A DNA stretch of 63,284 nucleotides, counting the filler, from Basidiobolus ranarum (taxonomy: Eukaryota): assembly GCA_040143965.1 (NCBI GenBank). It is 31 parts of 31 records of this genome, joined end to end, with 100 filler letters (N's around TTAATTAATTAA, not from the genome) between each part and the next. Parts side by side here need not be neighbours in the genome. Positions count along the whole stretch, not along the records: positions 45,039 to 46,979 come from JASJQH010004046.1; positions 47,080 to 49,018 come from JASJQH010004047.1; 29 more parts are not named here. The stretch is one strand, 5' to 3'. Numbering within the stretch: the first letter of the stretch is position 1; each line of letters opens with the position of its first letter. The notes under the pieces are model-generated. The model ran no database searches and was not told the origin of the DNA. It was given only the letters and a program-made list of their open reading frames with translations. Below are positions 971 to 62,559 of the stretch, piece by piece. The translations under genes and the position numbers were made by a program.

Positions 971-1735
971 GTTTCTGATCCAGTTTGATCTCCTGGTTTG
1001 GGATGAAGATACTATAGCTTCTGGCATTGTATTGGGCAGTTTGGTAGCCTGAATTTTTGTTTAAGGGCTCACATGAATGTTACTTTCTCCATGATTCTGT
1101 TTTGAATTAATTTAAATGATTGAATCAGGAAAAAATTGATCTGCATTATCTCTGAGGTTGTTTTTTCATTTTTTCAAACAAAACATCCCTCAACATGTTT
1201 AACTTTGAGGTTTTGTTATCATAGAGTTTGCAGACTGTAGTATGAGTGCAATAACCCAGAAATATGCTTTTCTTGCTTTTTAGATCAAATTTGATTGATT
1301 TTTGGTCATAATTCCGACATCAGCAATACATCTAAAGATCCTCAAATGTTATACATCAGGTTTAACTCCAAACCAAACTTGATATGGTGATGAGTTAGCC
1401 AGACTTCTAGTAAATCTTCTATTCTTTGGATATACAGCTGTAGCAACAGATTTTGCCCCATTCTGTTGGTTGTATCGTAATTTGCATGCAACTTCATCCA
1501 GAAGTCTGCTAAATACATGATTTAATGCTAAATTTTCAGTTCTTGATTCTGGAGCCATCACAAGGTTCTGAAACTTGTGTGGCAGGCTATTCAGGACTGT
1601 AACTATGATATCATGATAAGTAGTAGGTACTGCCATGCATTCCATTTCATCAACTAAAATGGTGACTCTGTTAATTAGCAATTTATTGTCTTCTTCTAGC
1701 TTCATCTTTAAGTTGAAGAACTGTGTACTTAGAAG
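971..1735 (-). mobile_element. Copia family A internal remnant: gag fused by deletion to the integrase C-terminus
   Basis: ORF 1349-1705 joins gag-like VTVLNSLPHKFQNLV..RLLDE directly to integrase AKSVATAVYPKNRRFTRSL..PYQVWFGVKPDV. Confidence 0.85.
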
Positions 1736-1954
1736 TGTTGAGATTATTTAGGGAGAATTATTGGTCTGGCCAGGAATTGAACCTGGGACCTCCTTCACTC
1801 TAGCAAGGTGCTCTAACCACTGAGCTACCAGTCCTTGTATGCCATGCCTATATTGCTAGGGAACCTTAACCTAGTCTGTCAATGTATGGTACTTTGGCAT
1901 TTCAGCTATACAAGCAACTGATTGGCCTTAGACTTTGTGTTCAAATGCAGTCAC
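1736..1954 (-). mobile_element. tRNA-containing TRIM LTR (3' or solo LTR, truncated by contig end)
   Basis: The reverse complement aligns with 47342-47561 and ends in an intact CTCAACA. It is followed by Copia gag sequence, not a PBS. Confidence 0.9.
1762..1834 (-). ncRNA. tRNA-like sequence within the TRIM LTR (probably not a decoding tRNA)
   Basis: 73 nt: GGACTGGTAGCTCAGTGGTTAGAGCACCTTGCTAGAGTGAAGGAGGTCCCAGGTTCAATTCCTGGCCAGACCA. A box TAGCTCAGTGG, B box GGTTCAATTCC; D and T stems pair. Confidence 0.85.
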
Positions 1955-8210: not shown

Positions 8211-9694
8211 AGTGCCTAATGGGAAGCTCTGGCTCCAGCTGATCCCCTTTAGCAATATAATCTTAGGCTTATGGCTAATACCAAGTTTGATATTAGACTG
8301 ACTATTTGGTGAATTGATATCAGTGCTCATGTTGAAATCTGACTGGGCTCTTGATGGTAAAATCATGGAGTTTAGTTTTCTATTTCGATAGTAGTAATGC
8401 ATATGCCTGATAGAATAGACTCCATCGATTTGACAAAATATACAGCAAGATAGTGCACTTTGCCCACAAAAACCTCCAAGTTTACTGATGGCAGGAGTGT
8501 CACCAATAAATACAATGATATTAGCTTTAATAAAATATTCACCCATCTGAACCCCATTAGATAACCATTCAAATTGTGCAATCAAAGGCTCCAAGAAACT
8601 ATCTATAAGCACTGGTGATTTAGGTCCAGATATGATGCATACTATTGAAATATTATACCAATCAGAAGGAGGAAGATTTAAGTTAATTAAAATTATTGGC
8701 CAGCAAGCCTTTCCAATGATATATTTGTTCAGTGAGAAACCATCCAGAGCCAATATAAATAATTGATCATACATGTTCTCAAGGAAACCTTGACTTTTCA
8801 GATTCTGATAGTGGTATCCATCAAGTATATTTGTAATACCATCAGCTTTATGGTGAGTACTTGGGTATTGGATCAATGATCTATATTTGGATGATTTCAT
8901 CAAAACTTTAAGATAGGGAATTAACAGTATGTAAGCCAAATATGAACAATATTTACCTGATTCAGTGATTGCCAATTGTGTGCAAACAGTACATGACTTC
9001 AGGTTTTTCAGATCACCAGTGAAAGCCAAATAACCATTTGGACATGAAGGTAGTTTAATTAATGAAGGATTATAAGTCATACAATTGACAAGTGTTTTCC
9101 ACTTGTTCCCGGCCTGTAGCAAGCAACATTTGCCAATCAACTGTGGTAAAAGTGTAAGAACACCAATAAACACCTGGTTGCTAAGATTGGATTGAACTCT
9201 CTACTCCTCTACAATCAAAGCTGGTTCCTTTACAGTAAGTGTTTTGAGTGGACTAATGCTTGCCAATAACAAAGAGTGCATAACAAAACAATTGTCTTCT
9301 TCTTCAACTTTTGATATACTACCATTGGTACTGGAATAACTGAGGTCAACATCTAGCAGCAAGTCCTCAAAGTTGTCTGGAATTACTGGTTTGACCAAAG
9401 TTGCTTTTTGACCTACATCATTCTGGTCATATAACTGTGGTAACTCCACAGTATCTTAACTTCTGGCAGTGTTACTAAAACTTTGAGGCAAACTACAGTT
9501 AGTGGACTCAATGGGCAAAACTAAAGTCAATTTAGTGTACTTATTACAGTTGTTATATACCAGGCTTTGTGCAGCTGCTGGCTTTGTACAGTGACCATGC
9601 TTGTGATTATTTTTTCTATGAAGCCTCCACTTTCACAGCACTAGCATTTGTGATAATAATAGCAGGGCTTCTTTAAACGTTTGTGCGGCAACAT
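8211..9694 (-). pseudogene. CACTA/EnSpm-type DDE transposase (Tnp2-like), 5' half
   Basis: CPNG..F....L..C..C, LALDGF..CWPIILINLNLPP..IISGPKSP..IDSFLEPL..IGDTPA..CIFC. Probable ATG at 9694 (MLPHKRLKKPC), with stops and frameshifts. Confidence 0.88.
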
Positions 9695-22547: not shown

Positions 22548-23532
22548 CATTGCTGTAGCAGTGGGAACTGTCAGCCAATACCTCAAAAATCCAGGATCTG
22601 AGCACAAAACTGCAGTAAAATGAATATTCAGGTATTTGAGAGGAACTGTAGATCTAGTCCTGGAATACTCTGCCACTCCTGATGCATGAAATTTTGAAGG
22701 GTACAGTGATGCAAACTGGGGAAGAAACCTTGATGATAGAAGATCAACAACTGGATACACTTTTCTCTATGGTAATGGAGCCATAACTTGGAATAGTAAG
22801 AAGTAACCAACCATAGCACTTTCCACTGCAGAAGCAGAGTATATGGCTGCCTCTGCTACTACACAAGAAGCTATGTGGTTAAGGAAGTTATTTACAGGCT
22901 TAGGATACATGCAAAAATGTGCTATTACCGTATTTGAAGATAATCAAAGTTGTATTTCATTATCTAAAAACCCTACATTTCATGCTAGAACAAAACATAT
23001 AGATATTAGGCATCATTTTGTTAGAGAAGCAATAGAGAATGATATAATTGAACTTGTCTATTGCCCTACTGAAGAAATGATTGCTGATATCTTAACCAAA
23101 CCTTTAGCTAAAGCACAATTTGAATTATTATGATATAAGTTAGGTTGAAGAGAAACACAAAATAATTAGTTGAGTGGGAATGTTGAAATTAGGTAAATAG
23201 CAACTCATTATTTAGTAGTTAGTTTATTCATATTCTGATTATTTAGTACTCAATTCTGTCATTCAAAAACGTGTGTTTATTGCTCTAATTGATAGAAACA
23301 CCAATTAGATCACTTTTACCAATTTTCACTATTTTCTCAAAACTTCTCCAAATCACCTCAAATTTTCACCCATGCCTAACAGGCATGTTTGTTATGATCT
23401 AAGCACGTCCAATAGTCCTATTTCATAGTAAACTATAAATAGGACATATTCAATTCAATAAAACTCAAGTGTCTAATTCACAAATCCAAATCTTGTCCAA
23501 AACACTTCCAAATCCCCTAAACACTTTTATCA
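22548..23532 (+). mobile_element. Copia family C: RT end and RNase H, PPT, 3' LTR (23181-23532)
   Basis: GYSDANWG..DRRSTTGY..STAEAEYMA..EDNQSCI..HARTKHIDIRHHFVRE..MIADILTKPL. PPT TTGAGTGGGAA, LTR TGTTG...TTATCA. Confidence 0.95.
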
Positions 23533-28685: not shown

Positions 28686-29661
28686 GTACTGAAGGAGCAG
28701 GAAGTTAGTAAACCCAAGGGAAAAGCAAAGGAGCCAGTGAGTTTAGGCTCTACTGTCCCACTTACCTAATTCTTCACACCATTACAAAGATCTGCATTTT
28801 CAGAGTCAGATATACTGGCAAAAAAGCTTAATTTCACCATGGAACCAGGTACACTAGTTGGCAGAGTGCTAAACTTGCAAGTCTATATAACACTTGGCAT
28901 CTCTCAACAAGCCAAAACACCGGCAAATAAAGCTCACAGATCTCCAACCTCAACTGTTACTTTTCAAATTGTTGAAATTAGCCCCAAAGTTAAAGGCAAG
29001 TAAAAAGCCACACAAACACTTCAAAGCACCCTCAGTAGTGCCACATTAAAAGGACTCTTAAAATAGTCAAAGTGCTTGAAGAGTATTTTCAAAAGTATGA
29101 ATGGAAAAACATAGTGCTAGTATGCAGAAAGTGGCTTCAGAAGTAGAACATTCAACTTGACTTTCAGTCTGGTGTTGACCATACAGACATCTGGGAAGAA
29201 CTTAATACAGAGTAGCATAATATCACAGGGTATCCACCAGATAGCTGGATGAATTTTGATTCAGCAACATTAATACAATGGTGGGCTTTGATGGAGGTAT
29301 TGATACAAACTTGTGTTGGGTATTAGCTAAACCTTGAGTATGAAGAACTCTATAAAATTATTCAAGAGAATAGATCAAAGAAACTAGGGATATTGAAGAT
29401 GATAAATTAGCATTCAAGTGGTAAATTTGTAAAATATGAGTTACAGTTTTGCACATATGTTGATCCATAGCTCTCTGAGATTGTAGCCAATCATGTGCAA
29501 CTATTTTCCAAGATCTTGAAATTTCACTCCAGAAACTGAAAAAATTGATTTAAATCAAATCTAACTTTACAATTCTATGATGGTAAGTAAATGGTCAATT
29601 TCAAATGGATTAAAATTGTGATGAATATTCTACAATAACAATCCTCAAATTTCTGTTAGGG
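28686..29661 (+). mobile_element. CACTA-like ORF2 3' half and A-end TIR
   Basis: Overlaps 18005-18354; ends ATTTCTGTTAGGG. Confidence 0.88.
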
Positions 29662-30730: not shown

Positions 30731-30821
30731 GTTTTTATGACGGTAAGTAAACGGTCAACCCCAAATGGATTAAAATTGTGACGGTTTTCCTACAATAACA
30801 ATCCTCAAATTTCTGTTAGGG
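30731..30821 (+). mobile_element. CACTA-like A-end, CpG-retaining copy
   Basis: Ends TTTCTGTTAGGG. Confidence 0.85.
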
Positions 30822-31898: not shown

Positions 31899-32126
31899 AT
31901 TATAAATCAAATGATTGGTAATCTATGGAATGTTCTGGAAAGTTTTAAAATTATCCTGAAAGTGATGAAATATACCAATAGACTCAAGTTATGATTAGTC
32001 CAATTTCAATCAGTCATAGAATATTCTAAGAATCTTGTGGAATGTTCCAGAAGATAATAGAAGGTTCTAGAAAGTAATATTGCAAATGTTGGTTAATGTT
32101 GAAAAGTATTAAATAAGAGGGAAAAG

Positions 32127-32567
32127 TGTTGAAGTTTATTGTCTTTATCATATTTGTTATCTCTATCTTTATACACCTAACTATTTGATATATTACATGT
32201 AAGTTAGTTAACATTACTTAGTCAAATATCACTTAGCTGAAAATTGAATCATAGATTATATATATATGTGAATACTGTGAGAATTAGCAATTCCATATTG
32301 GAAATTTAAAACTTGTCCAAATTGCCCCAAAGATAGCGCATTTTACTCCCATAGATGTTCTGAACACCATCCCAGTGTTAATTTTCTGTATTTCCATCAA
32401 AATGAATTAATGCTTCATTTCTGGACAATAAACAATTATCCCACAAAGCTATTGATACCTCCACTTTTATAAAGATCCTCCAAACAGCTCATATGTTCCC
32501 AATAGGTTATGAGCCCCATGTTCTAACCTTTACAGCATGGCAGACACCACTACTACCACTTTTATTA
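32127..32567 (+). mobile_element. Copia family D: 5' LTR (32127-32504), PBS GGTTATGAGCCC (32505-32516) and probable gag start
   Basis: TGTTGAAG...CCCAATA followed directly by the half-tRNA PBS. Confidence 0.85.
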
Positions 32568-32775: not shown

Positions 32776-33571
32776 AATGGTAACAAGAGTCAGCTATTTG
32801 CCAAGTGTCAGTACTATTCAAAATTTCAGATGTTTAGCAATTTTTCCACCATTAGTTTGCTGGTAAAGCATATTGATGTTGTTGAGGTATGTCTAATCAG
32901 TCAAGTATGTGCATATGTAGAGGCTAAACACAGTGAGATTCTTGTATTTTTTGATTCTCATTATGGCTGGAGTACAAAGCCTAAAATATCTAAATAAAGG
33001 CATGCATATTAATTTGAATTCCTACAGCAGTAAACCCAGTAATTTGCCATTCAAAATTATATTTTTGCAGAAATTGCTGGATATTGAATAACACATGCCA
33101 AATTTGAGGATCAATATTTTAACATGTATGAATACTGTTAAGATATCTTCAAGATACCGCCATCGCACCGTCAAAATCCCTAGCAGAATGCAGGCCAACA
33201 ATATTGTGATGGTTCTCTGATGGTTTTGCTATTTCAGAGGGTGGGTCCAATCCAGATCCAATTGATTTTATCTTTGTTAGGGATGAAAGAAACTAGGTAT
33301 TTCAAAAGTGACAAATTAGTGTTCAAGTGGTAAACATATAAAATATGAGTAATGTTTTTTGCACATTTGTTGATACATAGTTCTCTGATATTGTAGCTAA
33401 TCATGTGCAACTATTTTGCAAGATCTTGAAATTTCACTCCTAATATGGAAAAAACTGATTAAAATCAAATGTAACTTGATAATTTTACAATGGTAAGTAA
33501 ATGTTTAATCCAAAATGGATTAAAATTGTGAAGGTTTACCTATCATCATAATCCTCAAATTTCTGTTAGGG
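32776..33571 (+). mobile_element. CACTA-like B-end copy (ends 33282) nested in another copy near its A-end (ends 33571)
   Basis: TTTGTTAGGG at 33282 and TTCTGTTAGGG at 33571. Confidence 0.85.
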
Positions 33572-40955: not shown

Positions 40956-41681
40956 AACCTTGAAAGGTATCAATATCCTATCAATCGCCTTCGAAATCTT
41001 GGGATCAAGGCTACTCATACTACATATATATATGTAATGGATGCGGATTTTGTACCAAGTCCGAATCTTTATCAATATGCTCACGAAAATCTTGTGAATA
41101 TGATATCAAGTTCTACTCAACCAGTCGCATTTGTCATCCCCTGTGTAGCCATTCAAGAGGACTACTCTGGGCAGTTTCCCGTAACAGTTGCAGACCTACG
41201 TAGTCTTTTCAAGAGTGGAGATGCATATATCACAGATCCTCGAGCTGGTCATGGACCCACGCAGTATGGGATCTTATTGTCACCCAGTATCTTTCGATCG
41301 AATCCATATTATGAAGTGTGCTTTGAATCTCAATGGGAGCCCTATTACATTGTATCTAAAAGGCATCCGCATCCACTCTATGACGAGCGGTTCAAAAACC
41401 AAGGTGGGGATAAGCAACAACATGCGTTACATTTGAACGCTCTAGGGTATCGCTTTTTAGTGTTGAAAGATCATTTCATGTATCATTTGGACCATGCCAA
41501 GTTTTCCTGGCCAGGGGGAGGTTTTCGCAGTGGAGACAACACCGCTACATATAGTTTCTTTACAGAATATCTTCCTGAGATGAGCCAACGATTTGGCTCC
41601 AGTGTTAAATGGCCTCGTGGCTGCCGAAACCCATTTGTTTTAGAACAAAAACGAAGTATTTTTGGTGCAGCACTTCATTGA
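40956..41681 (+). CDS. GT49-family (LARGE/B4GAT1-like) glycosyltransferase, 5'-truncated
   Basis: Open from the contig start: YPINRLRNLG..YVMDADFVPS..AFVIP..WEPYYIV..PLYDERF..GYRFLVL..FMYHLDH. Confidence 0.88.
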   Translation, partial: NLERYQYPINRLRNLGIKATHTTYIYVMDADFVPSPNLYQYAHENLVNMISSSTQPVAFVIPCVAIQEDYSGQFPVTVADLRSLFKSGDAYITDPRAGHGPTQYGILLSPSIFRSNPYYEVCFESQWEPYYIVSKRHPHPLYDERFKNQGGDKQQHALHLNALGYRFLVLKDHFMYHLDHAKFSWPGGGFRSGDNTATYSFFTEYLPEMSQRFGSSVKWPRGCRNPFVLEQKRSIFGAALH

Positions 41682-44597: not shown

Positions 44598-44938
44598 CCC
44601 TAACAGAAATTTGAGGATTGTTATTGTAGGAAAACCATCACAACTTTAATCCATTTGGGATTGACTGTTAACTTATCATCATAAAATCATCAAGTTTGAT
44701 TTGATTTTAATCAATTTTTGCAGTTCCAGGAGTGAAATTTCAAGATCTTGCAAAATAGTTGCACATGATTGGCTACAACCTCAGAGAACTATGGATCAAC
44801 ACACATGCAAAAAATATAAATCCAATTTTACACAATTACAACTTGAACACTAATTTGTCACCTTCAAATCCCTAGTCTCTTTGATACATTCTTCTGAATA
44901 TTTTTATAGAGTTCATCTTACCCAAGGTTTACCTCATA
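44598..44938 (-). mobile_element. CACTA-like A-end and ORF2 3' end
   Basis: CCCTAACAGAAATTTGAGG. Confidence 0.88.
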
Positions 44939-45038: not shown

Positions 45039-45923
45039 CGGTCAAAAGTGAGTCTATTCTCGAATCAGAAGGTTTACCTTACTTTTCATTTAGATGAGGT
45101 GAAGAGCCAGAGTAAATACAGCTGGGCATCTTCCTTGCATTTTGTGAATCCTAAAGACAGCCCACCAGGTTAGAACTTGTTCAATAACATATAACACTAG
45201 ATCATTCACCCAATTTACCTTACCTTTTTCATCGTTTTAGAGGAGTGTAGTTGGGATGAGGAGCGCGACTGCCCTGGCGGAAAATGTATCGTTGGAGCTA
45301 TTCGTAACTTTACGCAACAAGTCGGGTGCTATGCACGTGATGGAAACACCGAGCAGAAATCTGATGCACTCAAGTTTTTGGTTCACTTCTTCGGAGATAT
45401 AACTCAACCACTCCATGATTGTGGACGCTTAAAGGGTGGCAACGATGCCAAAGCGAAGTTTGATGGAAAATCTAGCAACCTCCACTGTAAGTTGGCACTT
45501 TTATGTATGGATGAATGCTTTATATGAATCTTTTTAATGATGGTTTCTTCATTTTCCATAGCCATTTGGGATACTTCTATGATTACCAAACGTATGGGTA
45601 TCGCTCACAAGAACGATTCCAACACTTATGCCGACTACCTTGTTAAGGAACTTAATACTGGAAAATGGAGTCAGTTGAAGACTTCTTGGTTGGGTTGTGC
45701 TGCTGATGAACCATTTGCCAAGTGGAGTATTTGCCCCGGGAACTGGGCTTTAGAAGGTGATGCTTATAACTGTGAGACCATGTGGGCCGATTACGACGCT
45801 AACCCTTCAGCTGATTTGAGCAAAGCATATTACGAGAAGCATTTGCCTTTGGTTGAAGTTCAGCTCGCCAAAGCTGGGTACCGTTTGGCACAGTCTTTGG
45901 ACAAGATCTTTGCCAGCTGTTAA
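45039..45923 (+). CDS. S1/P1 nuclease, 5'-truncated (exons ..45040, 45094-45168, 45241-45486, 45562-45923)
   Basis: Spliced product: DEVKS..WASSLHFVNPKDSPP..RDCPGGKCIVGAIRNFT..ALKFLVHFFGDITQPLH..GGND..NLHSIWDT..QLAKAGYRLA. GT-AG introns keep the frame. Confidence 0.93.
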
Positions 45924-47127
45924 TTATTTTGATATACTCTTGTCTCAGTAAGACCTATCTATACAGGTCAATAACATATTCATTGGATTTCATTAGAAGC
46001 TTAGTAAGCTGATTCACTTTCAATTGATTAATTGCTGAATGAGTCTGTTAATAAAGCAGACACTTGTTAGTGACTTAGATATGTCAAACTTGATATTTTT
46101 CATTTGGCACCATGTATCTCCTAATACTGGCCAAAGCAGGGCTTTGTGTATGGAAGCTAATCTAACATGCTTCACTTATTTTTGGCGGCTCTTTTTCTGT
46201 GAATTCATTCATTATTTTAGGCTGAGCATCATGAATACGAAGTATTTGACCCATGCGTTAGTGTGAGTTATAAATTGACTGAACATTTTCTTTCTGTACA
46301 AGTCGGGCCATGATTTGGGTGTTGATCCATTTGTATATTCTTGGTGCATTTGGAACATGCAAAAGAAATCTGATCTGATATCATGCTAGATTTTGACCAT
46401 GACTAATCAGCAGGCTTCATTGCACCAATGGAAGAGCCCTTCAAACCTCGTCCAATCACAGAAACGTGAGCAATGTCAATCTAAAACACTACTTCCAGAT
46501 ACATGTTGAATAACCTGGATGATGCAGCATGCATTGCTTGTAACTGAAATCTTAAAACTCCGCGTCATAGGGTTGAAACTATTCAAAATGGTTTTTTTGA
46601 CAGGTAACATGGATGATCGTACCATAGCAACCTTAATAGCAGATCACATGTCTATTGAGGTAACTACTATAGCGTTCGCAATATCAGTTAGAAGTTTTAT
46701 TATTCTCAGGACCCAGAAAGCAAGAATCCGTTGGCAAAACCCGTTTTATGAAACCAACTCTCGGGCATGAAATATCGGTCAACATTGCTCTCAAACTCTT
46801 CAACAATGATGCTTTACAATAGGGAATATTACCAACACAGTGCGCATTAAACATTTTTTATAACGTCATGTAGATCAGAGAAGTAATGGCTATTTGATAT
46901 GCCAAAGTGGGTCATTTCTGTGCAATTACTTAATCTTTAGGTAATATTTTATTAAATGTGTGGATATGATTTTGTATGTNNNNNNNNNNNNNNNNNNNNN
47001 NNNNNNNNNNNNNNNNNNNNNNNTTAATTAATTAANNNNNNNNNNNNNNNNNNNNNNNNNNNNNNNNNNNNNNNNNNNNTTGACAGACTAGGTTAAGGTT
47101 CCCTAGCAATATAGGCATAGCATACAA

Positions 47128-47200
47128 GGACTGGTAGCTCAGTGGTTAGAGCACCTTGCTAGAGTGAAGGAGGTCCCAGGTTCAAATCCTGGCCAGACCA
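47128..47200 (+). ncRNA. tRNA-like sequence in the TRIM 5' LTR
   Basis: 73-nt cloverleaf-like fold: D arm GCTC/GAGC, T arm CCAGG-TTCAAAT-CCTGG, acceptor 6 of 7 paired. Confidence 0.85.
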
Positions 47201-47460
47201 ATATTTCTCCCTAAATAATTTCAATAGGTTATGAGCCCCAGTTAGTGCTAAATCCAGAAATCCTGCTTGAGGGGGAATGTTGAAAGTCTGGTGACTTGTG
47301 GTACAAGCAGTAATTCCCAAAGAGGAAAATGTGGAGCATGGTAACTGCATCTGAACACAAAGTCTAAGGCCAATCAGTTGCTTGTATAGCTGAAATGCCA
47401 AAGTACCATACATTTACAGACTAGGTTAAGGTTCCCTAGAAATATAGGCATAGCATACAA

Positions 47461-47535
47461 GGACCAATAGCTCAGTGGTTAGGGCACCATGCTAGAGAGT
47501 GAAGGAGGTCCCAGGTTCAAATCCTGGCCAGACCA
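47461..47535 (+). ncRNA. tRNA-like sequence in the TRIM 3' LTR (more decayed, 2-nt insertion)
   Basis: Direct repeat of 47128-47200; A and B boxes retained. Confidence 0.8.
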
Positions 47536-47561
47536 ATACTTCTCCCTAAATAATTTCAATA

Positions 47562-48545
47562 TTGGAAGGGGTACAATTCAAGTCAATTTAACTGGAGCTT
47601 CTGAAGAGAAAGTATATACTCTTAAGGATGTACTACATGTTCCAGATATTGCCAAGAACCTAATATCTGTATGCAAGGCCACCTCAGAAGGGTTAAGATT
47701 CAATTTTGATAAGTCAGGATACACCATCACTGATCAAAATGGGAAATATTCAGCTTTGGAAGAAAAGGATCAGAACATATACAAACTTACATATGGTCCA
47801 AGAGGTTTATATGTAAATATAAGTTATTCCAATCAAGAAACTATTCAATTATGGCATAAGAGATATGGCCATATTGGATTTGTTTATTTGAGTGAAATGA
47901 TCAAAAATTGCCTAATTTCTGGAATTCAAATTTACCCCCCAACCAAAATGGAAATTTATGAGGGTTGTATATATGGAAAACAAGCCAGGCAACTGTTCAA
48001 GAGCTCTGGTTCAATCAAATCTGTCAAAAAAGTGGATCTAATTCATTCAGATTTGTGTGGATCTATGCAAGATATATGTTTAGGTGAAAAAAGATATTTG
48101 ATCACATTTATTGATGATTATACAAGATACACTTGGGTCTACTTTATGGACAGAAAAGAAGAAGCCCTCCCTATCTTTAGAGATTTTAAAACACTTGTGA
48201 AGACTGAAACTGGAACTAAAGCCAAGAAAATATTTACCAATAATGGTGGAGAATATACTTCAACACTATTTAAGCACTTTTGCAAAGTTCATAGAATTAA
48301 GCAAGAAACTACTGCCCCCTATTCACCTCAACAGAATAGAGTTGCGGAAGGAGCTAACAGAACAATAACACAAATGGCAAGATCTACAATAAATGCACAA
48401 AGTTTATCTCATAATTTTTGGGTAAAATCTGTTGCTACAGCTGTATATCTGAAGAATAGGAGTTTTGCTAGAAGTCTGTATAACTCTACAACATATCAAG
48501 CTTGGTTTGGAGTTAAACCTGATGTAAAACATTTGGGGATCTTTG
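47562..48545 (+). mobile_element. Copia family A protease end, GAG-pre-integrase and integrase
   Basis: LKDVLHVPDIAKNLISV..LWHKRYGH..IHSDLCG..FIDDYTR..TNNGGEY (catalytic D replaced by N)..PQQNRVAE. Confidence 0.95.
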
Positions 48546-49018
48546 CCCTAACAGAAATTTGAGGATTGTTATTGTAGGAAAACCGTCACAATTTTAATCC
48601 ATTTGGGATTGACCATTTACTTACCATCATAAAATTGTCAAGTTAGATTTGATTTTAATCAATTTTATCAGTTTCAGGAGTGAAATTTCAAGATCTTGCA
48701 AAATAGTTGCACATGATTGGCTAAAATCTCAGAGAACTATGGATCAGCACATGTGCAAAAAACATAACTCAAATTTTACATAATTACCACTTGAACACTA
48801 ATTTGTCACATTTGAAATCCCTAGTCTCTTTGATATATTCTCCTGAATATTTTTATGGAGTTCTTCATACCCAAGGTTTAGCTCATATGAATGTCAAGCT
48901 GAATGTTCTTCTTCTGAAGCCACTTTCTGCATACTTGCACTGCGTTTTTCCCTTCATACTTTTGAAAATACTCCTCAAGCACTTTGACTATTTTTGTACA
49001 TCCTTGTAGTGTGACACT
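48546..49018 (-). mobile_element. CACTA-like A-end and internally deleted ORF2
   Basis: CCCTAACAGAAATTTGAGG. Confidence 0.88.
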
Positions 49019-51237: not shown

Positions 51238-52985
51238 TAGTGCAACACTACCAGGATGTATGAAAATAGTAAAAGTACTTGAGAAGTATTTTCAAATGTA
51301 TGAAGGGAAAAACTCAGTCCAAGAATGCAGAAAGTGGCTTCAGAAGAAGAGCATCCAACTTGACATTCAGTCTGGTGTTGACCATGCAGATATCTGGGAA
51401 GAATTTAATACAGCATGGTATAATATTGCAGGGTGTCCACTAGATAGCTGGAAGAATGTTGATTCATCACAATTAATACAATGGTGGGCTTTGATGGAGA
51501 TATTGATACAAACTTGTGTAGGATATGAGCTAAACCTTGGGTATGAAGAACTCTATAAGAGTATTTAGGAGAGTATAGTAAAGAAACTAGGAACTTCAAA
51601 GGTGGCAATTTAGCATATATGAGATAAATGTGCAAAATTTAAGGTACTTCTTGTGCATTGATCCATAGTTCTCTGCAATTGTAGCCAATCATGGGCAGCT
51701 ATTATGCAAGATCATGAAATTTCACACCTAAAACTAAAAAAATTTATTAAAATTAAATCTAACTTGACAATTATGATGGTAAGTAAATGGTGAATCCAAA
51801 TAGATTAAAATTGTGATGGTTTTCCTACCATTACAATCCTCAAATTTCTGTTGGGGAATCAGGCATATGCATTAGTACAATCAAAATAAAAAACTAAACT
51901 TCATGCTTTTAGAATGAAGAGCCTGTTCAGATTTCAATATGATCCATGATATCAACTAACTAATTAGTCAGTCTATCATCAAACTTGGTACTAACCATTA
52001 GCCTATGATTATGTTGCTAAAGGGGATCAGCTTCAGCCAGAGCTTCCCATTAGGCACTATGCACTTGCTAATCAACAACATTCGAATACTGCTTACTTTG
52101 CTATATAGTTGAAAATTCAATATGAGTGAGCCATTAAAGATAGGATCAAAGTTCGATTTGATTGGGAAAATGCTTGAATATATCAAGATGCCATCATATT
52201 TTACCAGGACTCCCATCAATATACACTCATCTAAGCATTTATTCAAATGCAAAGACCGGAAGTATTGGATTTATATATAATTCAGTGAAATCTTGATAAT
52301 ATATCTGCCTGAAAAGCATTGGCAACACTGGGGGTTGTGTCTGGATTTAGTTAATATATTCTTATGGCATCAACTCACATTGGCAGATCTCAGGCAGATA
52401 CAGCAACTATGCAAAGATTTTGTAATTAGAAATGAAAAACTCTATTACAGGTTTAAAGAAGATAGACTGAATCCATACCAGTATGCAATACATTTCCTGC
52501 TGCATCTTCCCCAACACAAATTTGAGAATTGTTATTGTAGGAAAACTATCACAATTTTAATCCATTTGGGGTTTACCATTTACTTACAATCATAAAATTG
52601 TCAAGTTTGATTTGATTCTAATCAATTTCTTCAGTTTCAGGACAGAATTTTCAAGATCTTGCAAAATAGTTGTTTATGATTGGCTAAAATCTCAGAGAAC
52701 TATGGATCAACACATGTGCAAAAAACATAACTCAAATTTTACACAGTTACCACTTGAACGCTAATTTGTCACCTTAAAAATCCCTAGTCTCTTTGATATA
52801 TTCTCCTGATTATTTTTATAGAGTTCATCTTACCCAAGGTTTAGCTCATACCCAAAACAAGTTTGTGTCAATATCTCCATCAAAGCCCACCATTGTATTA
52901 ACGTTGCTGAATTAACATTCTTCCAGCTATCTGGTGGATACCCTGCAATATTGTGCCACTCTGTATTAAGTTCTTCCCAGATATC
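51238..52985. mobile_element. Three nested CACTA-like pieces: ORF2 plus A-end (+, to 51856), transposase (+, 51857-52508), A-end plus ORF2 (-, 52509-52985)
   Basis: TTTCTGTTGGGG at 51856, FPLGTMHL in the middle piece, CCCCAACACAAATTTGAG at 52509. Confidence 0.85.
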
Positions 52986-53897: not shown

Positions 53898-55058
53898 TGT
53901 TGAAATTAAGTAAGTAGCAACGCATTATTTAGAAGTTAGTTTGTTTCATGTTCTGATTATTTAGCACTCAACTCTGTCATTCAAAAACATGTGTTTATTG
54001 CTCTACTTGATAGAAATAACAAATAGATCACTTTTATCAATTTTCACTATTTTCTCAAAACCTCGCAAAGTCAATTCAAATTTTCACTCAAGCTCAACAG
54101 GCATGTTTCCTATGATCTAAGCAATTCCAATAGTCTTACTTCATAGTAATCTATAAATAGGATGTACTCAATTCAATAAAATTCAAGTGTCTAATTCACA
54201 TATTCAACTCTTGTACAAAACACCTCAAAATCCTCTAAACACTTTTATCAGGTTATGAGCCCCAAGCTAGCTGTTAAAGGAATGTCTACTGCTATTATTA
54301 CCAATGTTTTTGCATCCACAGAAATGCTGAATGGTGAAGACTTTTGGCTTTGGAAGTTCAAGATACAAATGGTTCTTGAAGACAAGGACATATAGGGACT
54401 TGTTACAAGAGAAGAAATAGAGCCAAAGGGACCACCAGATGCTATTCTTGCCTTTCACAAGAAGCATAGGAAATTGCTCTCTACACTTTGTCTTCATCTC
54501 ACAGACCCTTAATTGAGGCACATACACTCAGCCAAAAACAGTAAAACTGCTTTGGAAGCACTTGAGTGACTATATCAGACTCAAAGTCTGACTAAAAGGT
54601 ATATATCCTAGATGAAAATTATTCTCAATTCAGATGAATTCTGATGAATCTATGGCCAAGCATATGAACTTGCTAAAAACTGTGGCTGATCAGCTCTCAT
54701 TCATTGGAGCATCTCTAAATGTAGATGGCTTGGGCATGACACTACTTAGGAGCCTGCCTGATGAGTTTGTGAACCTCACACTTGCCCTAGAATCAAGATC
54801 AGAACCATGAACAATGGAATAAGTTGGTGCTAAGCTTTTGAATGAGGACTCATGGAGATCTGATTCTCAGTCATATAATGCAAAGCCGGCATTTTTTGGA
54901 GTTGTAAAACATCCAACTGGCTTCAATAATGATGCATTTAGCAGGAAATTAATCATTTGCAAGTATTGCAAGAACCCAGGCCAGCTGTTCAAAGATTGCA
55001 GAAAAAGGATTTTTGGCAAAAAGCAAAAATTTGAACAAGCAAAACAAGTAAGCTCTGC
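53898..55058 (+). mobile_element. Copia family C: 5' LTR (53898-54250), PBS GGTTATGAGCCC (54251-54262) and decayed gag from 54282
   Basis: The LTR matches 23181-23532. gag reads LNGEDFWLWKFKIQMVLEDKD..LRSLPDEF..ICKYCKNPGQLFKDC. Confidence 0.93.
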
Positions 55059-61645: not shown

Positions 61646-62285
61646 GGGCCTCAATCAAAGTTAGGCAAAGTGGTCAAAATCTTGATCAATTCTGAATACA
61701 TTAATACTCAAAGATATCCCTGGAGAGCTCTAGACTTAAGACACTATGAATAAAGCTGCCATCATCTTTTGAATGTGCAACAATGTCTAAAAGTACTTTT
61801 CCTAAACATACCACATAAGTAAAATAAACTGTTTCCAAAATGGTAAATAACATCGTGGCGGATAGTGCCCAATCATGCCAATTTGTGCCGGCACACTTTT
61901 TAGCTGGCCTGATCTGGCTCAATAAAATGGAACAAGTCTAATACAATCCAATTTTCCAGAAGAGGGAAAAGTTTCAGAAACTTGAGAAGTAGGGCCTCAA
62001 TCAAAGTTAGGCAAAGTAGTTCAAGTCTTGATTAATTCTCAATACATTCATACTCAAAGATATCCATTGAGAGCTCTAGACTTAAGACACTATGAATAAA
62101 GCTTTCATTATCTTTAGAATGTGCAATAATGTCTAAAAGTACTTTTCTTAAACATACCACATAAGTAAAATATACTGTTTCCAAAATGGTAAATAACATC
62201 ATGCTGGATAGTGCCCAATCTTGCCAATTTGTGCTGGCACACTTTTTAGCTGGCCTGATCTGGCTCAATAAAATGGAAGTAGTCT
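61646..62285 (+). repeat. Two 294-bp copies (period 346) of an RGACTTGTTC-family element end
   Basis: 61646-61939 ends TGGAACAAGTCT and 61992-62285 ends TGGAAGTAGTCT. Confidence 0.85.
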
Positions 62286-62559
62286 ATTTAGCATATACAT
62301 CAATATGGCTCAAAGTGGAATGCATTATGCTTGATCACACTATAGGAAATTAACTTTGACATTTTACCAATAATATAAAACAATCCCTAATTCTGATTGA
62401 AACCAATAAAGTCTAACATCATAGATATATATGGTAGTTACATATCATGTCAAAACAGATACTTCCTGATTCATAACCTGCTTTGGTACAGGAAACCACC
62501 ACTTCCAAAACTTTGTGCATGTAGTTTAATGAAGGTGTGGGAGGTGCAAAGCAGCACAC

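Follow-up and report, generated by a model that had tools for sequence, protein, structure and literature searches.

What kind of repeat occupies positions 47080-47561, and does it represent a type of element that has already been described? A first-pass annotation had read the locus as a miniature LTR retroelement whose LTRs carry a tRNA-derived Pol III promoter, that is, as a SINE-like parasite of the LTR machinery, and had suggested that both the family and its half-tRNA priming might be undescribed. The locus was analysed here within a 63-kb window, by which the whole stretch of DNA under study is meant. This window consists of 31 contigs of ~1.94 kb each, joined by N44-TTAATTAATTAA-N44 linkers into a chain that is artificial.

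Layout of the element and comparison of its LTRs

The order found at 47080-47561 was a partial LTR, a 51-bp internal domain and a 284-bp LTR, just as the first-pass annotation had placed them, and a further copy of the LTR was located on contig 1. The features were delimited as follows:

47080..47226, plus strand: 5' LTR remnant of 147 bp, LTR positions 136-284 (BLASTN, 93.3% over 149 columns to 47413-47561; alignment)
47227..47277, plus strand: internal domain of 51 bp, with primer-binding site, spacer of ~28 bp and polypurine tract (sequence between LTR end and LTR start)
47227..47240, plus strand: primer-binding site GGTTATGAGCCCCA, complementary to the anticodon stem-loop, an internal part, of initiator tRNA-Met (recurrence of the 14-mer; probe identity)
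47269..47277, plus strand: polypurine tract GAGGGGGAA, adjoining the 3' LTR (sequence; purine run plus TGTTGAAR pattern)
47278..47561, plus strand: complete 3' LTR of 284 bp, TGTTGAAA...TTTCAATA (sequence, BLASTN, alignment)
1736..1954, minus strand: third copy of this LTR, found on a separate contig whose end truncates it; LTR positions 64-284 (BLASTN, alignment)

The truncation of the 5' LTR is not biological but comes from the contig, which starts at 47080 (the N-linker ends at 47079); therefore, the 5' flank and any target-site duplication lie outside the sequence. The complete element was predicted to measure 619 bp (284 + 51 + 284) and no sense-strand ORF of at least 40 aa was found wholly inside it, in agreement with the length of about 620 bp and the lack of coding capacity claimed before. 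When the 5' and 3' LTRs were aligned, one 2-nt indel and 8 substitutions were counted over the 147 comparable bases, the numbers given by the earlier annotation. The substitutions comprise 5 transitions and 3 transversions and correspond to p = 0.054, K2P = 0.057 and an identity of 94.6%.

The left LTR boundary at 47278 is a single instance for this LTR family and was placed purely by analogy, from the purine run followed by TGTTGAAR. This combination occurs four times in the window against 0.05 expected, and TGTTGAAR is the LTR start in at least three LTR families of the window. Independent support for the right boundary came from the copy on contig 1, which ends in ...CTCAACA (the canonical CAACA end) and whose homology stops at the same base as the LTR end, without extending into the 51-bp internal stretch.

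This last observation also bears on whether a retroelement is present at all. The 1.44 units of a 335-bp period at the contig start, on contigs that are short and unplaced, could be read as a 335-bp tandem or satellite repeat with a tRNA pseudogene, or as an assembly artefact of a 2-kb contig. However, the third copy excludes the 51-bp stretch, and the TG...CA-type inverted ends and a primer-binding site and polypurine tract in common with Copia elements also argue against this explanation. As the 5' and 3' LTRs differ by about 5%, they are no collapsed duplicate. We consider a satellite or artefact very improbable.

The contig-1 copy agreed with the 5' LTR at 7 of the 8 substitution sites and at the indel (binomial about 0.04), so that nearly all of the change lies on the 3' LTR branch. 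To judge from the aligned copies, this asymmetric divergence is easier to reconcile with recombination, gene conversion or a tandem array than with a single clean insertion. Tandem LTR-core-LTR arrays are known from Cassandra, a plant TRIM. RIP-like mutation, considered as a source of the asymmetry, was not indicated, there being no bias from C to T among the 5 transitions and 3 transversions.

The LTR-51 bp-LTR unit was visible once in the window; the LTR itself was present at two loci, the second of them with the LTR only. A 295-bp direct repeat pair at 61646-62286, likewise with a 51-bp spacing, was set aside, having neither TG...CA ends nor a primer-binding site.

The tRNA-like module of the LTRs

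A tRNA-like segment was detected in every copy of the LTR:

47128..47200, plus strand: tRNA-like cloverleaf of the 5' LTR, with AGA at the anticodon position and a short variable arm (Rfam RF00005, 58.6 bits, E 4.2e-10; ARAGORN, tRNA-Ser(aga))
47461..47535, plus strand: decayed tRNA-like segment of the 3' LTR (Rfam RF00005, 29.9 bits; missed by ARAGORN)
1762..1834, minus strand: tRNA-like segment of the third LTR copy (Rfam RF00005, 57.8 bits)

The gathering score of RF00005 is 29 bits, and its three matches in the whole 63-kb window were all inside copies of this LTR; ARAGORN called two of the three. The 73-75 nt cloverleaf with A and B boxes that had been ascribed to each LTR was recovered in both cases. 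In the 5' LTR the A box lies at 47135-47145 and the B box at 47179-47189. In the 3' LTR both boxes are intact (47468-47478 and 47514-47524), whereas the module around them has decayed, with a broken acceptor stem and a 2-nt insertion in the anticodon arm. The A box TAGCTCAGTGG and the B box GGTTCAA[A/T]TCC were present in 3/3 LTR copies. Five of the eight inter-LTR substitutions, and also the indel, fall within the tRNA-like segment, with the A and B boxes unchanged in the three copies. An AGA (Ser) anticodon together with a short variable arm makes no working tRNA-Ser.

The tRNA-like part occupies LTR positions 184-258, beginning 183 bp into the repeat unit, and its distance from the LTR end is 26 bp in each LTR. 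As the module sits at an identical position in each of the three LTRs, later insertion of a SINE into an integrated copy was rejected.

The sense strand contains no TTTT over the 482 bp, the first one lying 143 bp beyond the element. Depletion of T4 terminators was considered as a sign of Pol III read-through and was discarded as not significant, the probability of finding none being 0.24-0.34 in shuffles of the element composition; among background strand windows, 87/1812 were without TTTT.

The module would act as an internal Pol III promoter, from which the template RNA would start inside the 5' LTR and then cross the T4-free internal domain and the 3' LTR. Alternatively, the module could be a passenger, e.g. 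an old SINE or a captured tRNA in U3-R, of a conventional TRIM transcribed by Pol II, with the rest of the interpretation unchanged. The lack of significance of the missing TTTT is in line with a passenger, as is that of the untouched box consensus positions, given 7 changes over three copies (estimated about P = 0.1). In addition, a functional Pol III promoter lacks experimental validation in Helenus, the TRIMs with tRNA-like LTRs, according to the part of Kojima 2024 (PMC10886601) on which we draw. In contrast, both boxes are intact in all copies while the remaining 3' LTR module decays, and neither the tRNA-like segment nor the internal domain nor the 3' LTR is followed by a terminator. Cassandra offers a parallel, as its transcripts arise from a Pol III promoter, according to work cited in the same part of PMC10886601. 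A passenger module appears unlikely to us, and a promoter role is preferred.

Elements of this kind swell tRNA gene predictions, as 3/3 of the Rfam tRNA matches in the window were LTR modules, and they spread potential Pol III promoters across the genome.

Primer-binding site and relation to Copia elements

The primer-binding site and the sequence beyond the 3' LTR both led to Copia elements, and the following features were identified:

53898..54264, plus strand: LTR of 353 bp from a different family, TGTTGAAATT...TTTATCA; the same primer-binding site comes next, with a Copia-type gag after it (LTR boundaries confirmed by a second copy at 23181-23532)
32129..32518, plus strand: LTR from yet another family, TGTTGAAG...CCCAATA, with the same primer-binding site behind it
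47562..48545, plus strand: Copia fragment adjoining the 3' LTR, with the C-terminal part of the protease, a GAG-pre-integrase domain and integrase (Pfam Pol_BBD, gag_pre-integrs, rve)

The complete 14-mer GGTTATGAGCCCCA recurs directly behind these two other LTR ends, at 32505 and 54251. Its first 12 nt are identical to the 3' end of a Northern probe described as specific for yeast initiator Met-tRNAi, and this 12-mer occurs three times in the window against 0.14 expected, a number reached in 0/100 shuffles. In the tRNA-iMet of the host, the site predicts U27 and G28-G31 ahead of a CUCAUAA loop. The LTR and primer-binding site at 53898..54264, with gag behind them, are a candidate for the autonomous-partner type. 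Copia gag-pol would copy the miniature element in trans, and reverse transcription would be primed by a fragment of initiator tRNA-Met pairing through its anticodon stem-loop, comparable to Ty5, copia and what has been proposed for fungal Helenus.

The Copia fragment at 47562..48545 is 84.5% identical over 934 bp to 58205-57275 and is interrupted at 48546 by another repeat. Its best identity to any match was 42%, and the named matches were from plants. Judged from this arrangement, it is likely the target of a nested insertion, in which the present copy would have entered the pol region of a Copia element. On contig 1, mid-gag Copia sequence directly follows the LTR without a primer-binding site; therefore, this copy is either solo or a 3' LTR. 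At both visible LTR 3' ends (2/2), the adjoining sequence is thus the interior of one Copia family, in one orientation, which could reflect targeted integration into its own helper or a chimera with it. The fragment set is rich in deletion derivatives, such as that of contig 1, in which gag is fused to the C-terminal part of integrase.

The LTRs might instead belong to a longer element, whether autonomous, as a Copia, or a large non-autonomous derivative, whose interior was lost once, by a deletion of what lay between primer-binding site and polypurine tract or by unequal recombination. A single 51-bp core in the window, the many deletion derivatives, the two junctions with one Copia family in one orientation and the asymmetric LTR divergence would all be accommodated by such an event. 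However, nothing but primer-binding site, spacer and polypurine tract is left, as in a selected minimal mobilisable element, which is improbable at random. Furthermore, in both cases no primer-binding site intervenes between the last base of the LTR and the Copia interior, which is the signature of a nested insertion and not of an interior of the element itself, and the size and layout are within those of Helenus, for which 311-1263 bp is reported in the section of PMC10886601 concerned. A one-off product of this type seems distinctly improbable. Our favoured explanation, which we hold to be probable from the sequence features described, is an old, partly assembled TRIM of the Helenus type, mobilised by Copia and primed by iMet, with a tRNA-like Pol III promoter and inserted in Copia pol.

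Outside the window, the junction motif CAAYA+GGTTATGAGCCCCA was found at 81 metagenome loci with 83 junctions. A Copia pol match was present in 14 of these 81 loci, in 10 of them downstream and in the same orientation. No similarity to the LTR was detected at the metagenome junction loci beyond about 20-39 bp around the junction. With default settings, ARAGORN gave no tRNA call near any of the 83 junctions, and its relaxed thresholds gave four candidates in the metagenome set, for none of which Rfam returned a match at E up to 0.1. A second LTR end was present within 1 kb downstream at 2/83 junctions, which makes these two TRIM-sized, both of them without a tRNA-like part. A scan of the metagenomes with a 32-nt family-specific LTR pattern returned 0 loci, and so did a scan of a prokaryote genome collection with the 3' half of the tRNA-like segment.

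Comparison with Helenus and other known systems

The part of Kojima 2024 (PMC10886601) considered here describes Helenus as TRIMs with tRNA-like LTRs; those of fungi are Copia-dependent, are mostly primed through the tRNA-iMet anticodon loop and have target-site duplications of 5 bp. The present element has direct LTRs and a primer-binding site and polypurine tract placed as in this description (TRIMp3; fungal families such as LTR-1_PTrit), i.e. a short non-coding LTR-PBS-PPT-LTR arrangement of miniature size, the predicted 619 bp being inside the reported range. Each LTR likewise contains a tRNA-like sequence with an A box (TRGCY...YGG) and a B box (GGTTC), the predicted tRNA is non-functional, with an anticodon at odds with its body, and the AGA found here matches the 'tRNA-Ser-AGA' calls typical in several rust Helenus families. 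The primer-binding site against the tRNA-iMet anticodon loop, common with Copia elements, corresponds to that of fungal Helenus. The differences concern the internal domain, of 51 bp here vs the 85 bp singled out for Selaginella in that text, and the host, which one contig places near Glomeromycota/Mortierellomycota, whereas the fungal hosts published there are only Pucciniales, to which its Table 1 adds Agaricus bisporus and Coprinopsis cinerea.

The element fits the Helenus kind as matched to the published description, not to consensus sequences, and it could equal a catalogued family. Its novelty would not go beyond that of a family or a host lineage, and it is not a new class, because the part of Kojima 2024 cited here already describes both the class and half-tRNA priming for fungal Helenus. 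The precedent of Helenus for tRNA-bearing TRIMs, mentioned in the first-pass annotation, was borne out by this source, and its idea of a possibly undescribed family type and priming was not supported. As for the SINE-like parasite of LTR machinery, its structural side stood, with a non-coding LTR-PBS-PPT-LTR unit, A and B boxes, and a primer-binding site and LTR start common with Copia elements; the novelty of the type did not.

A GT49 ORF in the window was 51-59% identical to Mortierellomycota and Glomeromycota proteins, and an S1/P1 nuclease ORF had P1 nuclease and nuclease S1 as its best PDB matches; from these two non-repeat contigs the host is probably a fungus, and the contigs of both have no repeats in common with that of the element. 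A tnp2 transposase ORF gave one 83% match. It is conceivable, but on balance doubtful, that the element represents a Helenus lineage with an extreme 51-bp core in an early-diverging fungus near Glomeromycota/Mortierellomycota, beyond the Dikarya-only range published for fungi. If true, the partnership between a tRNA-like-LTR TRIM and an iMet-half-primed Copia would be much deeper in fungal history, or would have re-originated independently, and the fungal hallmarks in a possible non-Dikarya fungus would broaden the known range of Helenus. Such a finding would also add a case for how miniature elements track helper retrotransposons. Otherwise, this is routine repeat annotation. The class, the proposed Pol III promoter and half-tRNA priming are already published in the part of Kojima 2024 referred to above.

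With SINE2 elements it shares a non-autonomous nature, a tRNA-derived module with A and B boxes and, by analogy, probable Pol III transcription. In contrast to SINE2, the tRNA-like part is internal to the unit and not at its 5' end, the unit ends in ...CAAYA followed by the primer-binding site, and there are TG...CA ends and a polypurine tract but no LINE-derived or A-rich tail. By the same analogy, LTR-retrotransposon proteins would be needed here and not those of a LINE.

Cassandra, a plant TRIM, is alike in design, as both of its LTRs contain a module from a small-RNA gene that brings an internal Pol III promoter, a putative one in the present element. However, that module is derived from 5S rRNA and the present one is tRNA-like, and the Rfam matches across the whole window were all to tRNA, with none to 5S, which separates the element from Cassandra. 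Further differences lie in the host kingdom, here probably that of the fungi, and in a primer-binding site for half-tRNA-iMet priming.

Finally, the primer-binding site resembles those of Ty5 and copia in being directed at the initiator tRNA-Met anticodon stem-loop and not at a tRNA 3' end, and the LTR end ...CAACA is directly followed by GGTTATGAGCCC. The string at this junction of LTR end and primer-binding site is also found in a probe primer for yeast chromosome III-L, which would be located in Ty5-1. Half-tRNA priming of the Ty5/copia type was reportedly described by Ke, Gao and Voytas in 1999. The literature on it corresponds to refs 37 and 38 in Kojima 2024 (PMC10886601). Whereas Ty5 and copia encode gag-pol, are autonomous and have Pol II promoters in their LTRs, the element described here is non-coding and carries a tRNA-like module in its LTRs.

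Element anatomy and LTR history

The window was composed of 31 contigs of 1,937-1,954 bp each, ordered by falling length and joined by 30 linkers made of 44 N, TTAATTAATTAA and 44 N; as this chaining is artificial, contigs that are adjacent in the window are not genomic neighbours. Evidence on copy number covers this 60 kb and public collections that probably do not include the organism. The element is placed at the extreme start of contig 47080-49018, and its layout as proposed in the first-pass annotation (an LTR, a 51-bp internal region and a 284-bp LTR) agreed with the sequence in every detail that could be checked. The left LTR is present as reported there, but its shortness is due to the contig end, which cuts the LTR, and not to a short LTR.

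Parts of the element
47080-47226: 5' LTR remnant, the last 147 bp of the LTR
47227-47277: internal stretch, 51 bp
47278-47561: 3' LTR, 284 bp, starting TGTTGAAA and ending TTTCAATA

A third LTR copy lies at 1736-1954 (minus strand), in the first contig, and shows 93% identity with the 3' LTR and 97% with the 5' LTR remnant. Its homology ends at the identical base as in the other LTRs, with a canonical ...CTCAACA end that is the inverted complement of the TGTTG start. No primer-binding site was found after this LTR, and mid-gag Copia sequence adjoins it directly. With the same end and another flank, this copy shows the LTR to be a discrete unit that occupies at least two loci; a 335-bp satellite was ruled out by the same features of this copy. 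The left LTR boundary is a single instance for this LTR family in the window. TGTTGAAR preceded by a purine run was counted 4 times there versus 0.05 expected, and the TGTTGAAR start is backed by paired copies in two other LTR families. Elsewhere, at 61646-62286, two 295-bp direct repeats of 92% identity are separated by 51 bp, and neither TG...CA ends nor a tRNA-iMet primer-binding site are present in them.

Between the element's two LTRs there are 8 substitutions and one 2-nt indel, exactly as first counted; 5 of the substitutions are transitions and 3 are transversions (p = 0.054, K2P = 0.057). The contig-1 copy sides with the 5' LTR at the indel and at 7 of the 8 substitution sites, all three copies differing at the eighth, and this agreement places nearly all the change on the 3' LTR branch (two-sided binomial ~0.04). 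The two LTRs are, from this comparison, not simple sisters, and gene conversion, inter-copy recombination or a tandem LTR-core-LTR array fits better than one clean insertion that later aged. Passages of the paper describing Helenus, a group of miniature non-coding LTR retrotransposons (TRIMs) with tRNA-like LTRs, report tandem arrays for its member LTR-11_DR (Kojima 2024, PMC10886601). At 32119-32518, an LTR of another family (32129-32504, TGTTGAAG...CCCAATA) is immediately preceded by a polypurine-like run and immediately followed by a tRNA-iMet-type primer-binding site, the order expected within a tandem LTR-core-LTR array.

tRNA-like segments and possible Pol III transcription

An Rfam scan of the whole window gave three matches above the gathering score, all of them to RF00005 (tRNA) and all inside copies of this LTR.

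tRNA-like segments
47128-47200: 5' LTR, RF00005, 58.6 bits
47461-47535: 3' LTR, RF00005, 29.9 bits, barely over the cut-off of 29
1762-1834, minus strand: contig-1 copy, RF00005, 57.8 bits

The presence in each LTR of such a segment, with 26 bp left to the LTR end, was thus confirmed, and the A and B boxes ascribed to it were recovered as TAGCTCAGTGG and GGTTCAA[A/T]TCC, respectively, in 3/3 copies. ARAGORN called a tRNA-Ser(AGA) for two segments and missed the decayed one of the 3' LTR, in which the acceptor stem is broken and 2 nt are inserted, with the A and B boxes unchanged. The anticodon position reads AGA (Ser) and the variable arm has just 5 nt. By textbook tRNA rules, a Ser anticodon is incompatible with a variable arm of this length in a working tRNA-Ser, so the segment cannot be one.

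Transcription of the element by Pol III from the tRNA-like module is inferred as a possibility from its sequence. Counted in its favour were the boxes, intact in all copies, the absence of a T-run after the tRNA-like segment, and a 482-bp sense strand without TTTT, the first TTTT being at 47704, 143 bp past the element. The lack of TTTT is not significant, as it was also found in 24-34% of shuffled sequences, and 87 of 1,812 background strand windows lacked TTTT too; box conservation is likewise not significant, the changes being too few. Pol III transcription of Helenus itself is unvalidated according to passages of its description (PMC10886601).

Primer-binding site and putative Copia partners

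The 12-mer GGTTATGAGCCC was found three times in the window versus 0.14 expected, a number reached in 0/100 shuffles, and each occurrence (47227, 32505 and 54251) extends to the same 14-mer directly after an LTR end.

Features around the primer-binding site
From 47227: primer-binding site, first 14 nt of the internal domain, GGTTATGAGCCCCA
53898-54250: 353-bp LTR of another family, TGTTGAAATT...TTTATCA, boundaries backed by a copy at 23181-23532

After the LTR at 53898-54250, the same primer-binding site is followed by a Copia-type gag reading frame. The 12-mer holds an ATG with flanks complementary to the anticodon loop CUCAUAA; being the complement of this loop, it is predicted to pair with an internal part of the initiator tRNA-Met and not with the tRNA 3' end. 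In metagenomes, the junction motif CAAYA plus GGTTATGAGCCCCA was detected at 83 junctions in 81 loci; 14 of these hold a match to the Copia fragment of the element's contig, which lies downstream and is oriented alike in 10 and is arranged otherwise in 4. In two TRIM-sized metagenome loci, L013 (junction 2502) and L058 (junction 6490), a second LTR end follows 695 and 854 bp downstream, and no tRNA-like part was detectable in either. The common primer-binding site, including the LTR-site-gag order and the metagenome junctions, together with the common LTR start, supports a putative mobilisation of the element by Copia-type proteins with half-tRNA priming. The suggestion that such priming might be undescribed was not borne out, as it is in print for fungal Helenus in the passages cited (PMC10886601).

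Copia pol starts immediately after the 3' LTR end at 47561. This fragment has the Pfam domains Pol_BBD, gag_pre-integrs and rve, and shares 84.5% identity over 934 bp with 58205-57275 on another contig, where this Copia extends upstream into gag; the simplest reading would be that the miniature element was inserted into a Copia element. At 2/2 junctions (1736/1735 and 47561/47562), the LTR 3' end meets one and the same Copia family, oriented like the LTR (in gag and in protease-integrase, respectively). As this family is estimated at only about a tenth of the window, the coincidence is noteworthy. With n = 2, it could reflect chance, target preference or chimera formation. On the first contig, the Copia at 1334-1735 (minus strand) is internally deleted, its mid-gag frame joining the integrase C-terminal part at about 1458/1459. 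On the element's contig, the Copia integrase is interrupted at 48546 by a very abundant repeat that starts CCCTAACAGAAATTTGAGG and occupies 48546-49018. It is present on at least seven other contigs (e.g. 29321-29661, 30733-30821, 33283-33571, 44598-44938 and 52509-52850), with copies 83-97% identical across many contigs.

Host lineage and comparison with known elements

Two repeat-free contigs hint at the host. The better of the two hints, an uninterrupted GT49 glycosyltransferase ORF of 241 aa (40956-41678), had 85 relatives at E <= 0.001 among 860 candidates. The best 22 of these 85 were all from Mortierellomycota or Glomeromycota (51-59% identity), versus 33-42% for Pucciniomycotina yeasts. 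In a quick tree of 40 rows, with 39 of the 85 matches spanning genera and 46 near-duplicates or unnamed sequences left out, the window sequence grouped with Glomeromycota and Mortierellomycota, outside each (SH-aLRT 83, with no strongly supported set). The element's host is probably a fungus, perhaps a Mucoromycota-like one and not a rust. The best PDB matches of an S1/P1 nuclease ORF (45201-45524) were P1 nuclease (1ak0) and nuclease S1, ahead of other nucleases; these two are fungal enzymes, and the weaker matches are plant enzymes. This frame continues to 45920 in two parts, in the same frame, with a single stop between them at 45525-45527 that could be due to an intron, a pseudogene or a sequencing error. 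Neither the GT49 nor the nuclease contig has a repeat in common with the element's contig, so linking them to its host presupposes that the chained contigs form a single assembly. Searches with the Copia fragment and the transposase, and two ESM Atlas look-ups, pointed to no taxon. A 330-aa ORF at 8211-9200 (minus strand) with a Transposase_21 (tnp2) domain, which has related copies on four other contigs, is 83% identical to a 698-aa public protein.

In the same passages on Helenus (PMC10886601), fungal members have primer-binding sites common to Copia families, target-site duplications of 5 bp and mostly non-functional tRNA-like parts, and they underlie the majority of "tRNA-Ser-AGA" and similar tRNA calls in the genomes of rusts. 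Lengths range over 311-1,263 bp, and the published fungal hosts are Pucciniales only, plus Agaricus bisporus and Coprinopsis cinerea in its Table 1. Among the papers listed since 2024 that name Helenus or TRIMp3 (the term for a TRIM transcribed by Pol III), those on transposable elements by title comprise that paper, a review, a meeting report and work on sugar beet, and no new host range was found in them. A narrow literature search, which does not prove absence, found no report of TRIMs in early-diverging fungi. The element's kind is already known; what may be new is the family, Helenus having been compared by its published description, the very short core of 51 bp and possibly the lineage of the host.

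Cassandra, a plant TRIM, has 5S sequence in its LTRs, whereas the Rfam scan gave no 5S match in the element. A SINE does not fit either, as the tRNA-like part lies inside a unit that has TG...CA ends, a primer-binding site and a polypurine tract. In contrast, each defining feature of Helenus that could be checked is present, and the first-pass assignment to tRNA-bearing TRIMs of the Helenus kind was right. Judged by these features, the locus, probably nested in a Copia, is a real Helenus-type miniature LTR element, old and partly assembled.
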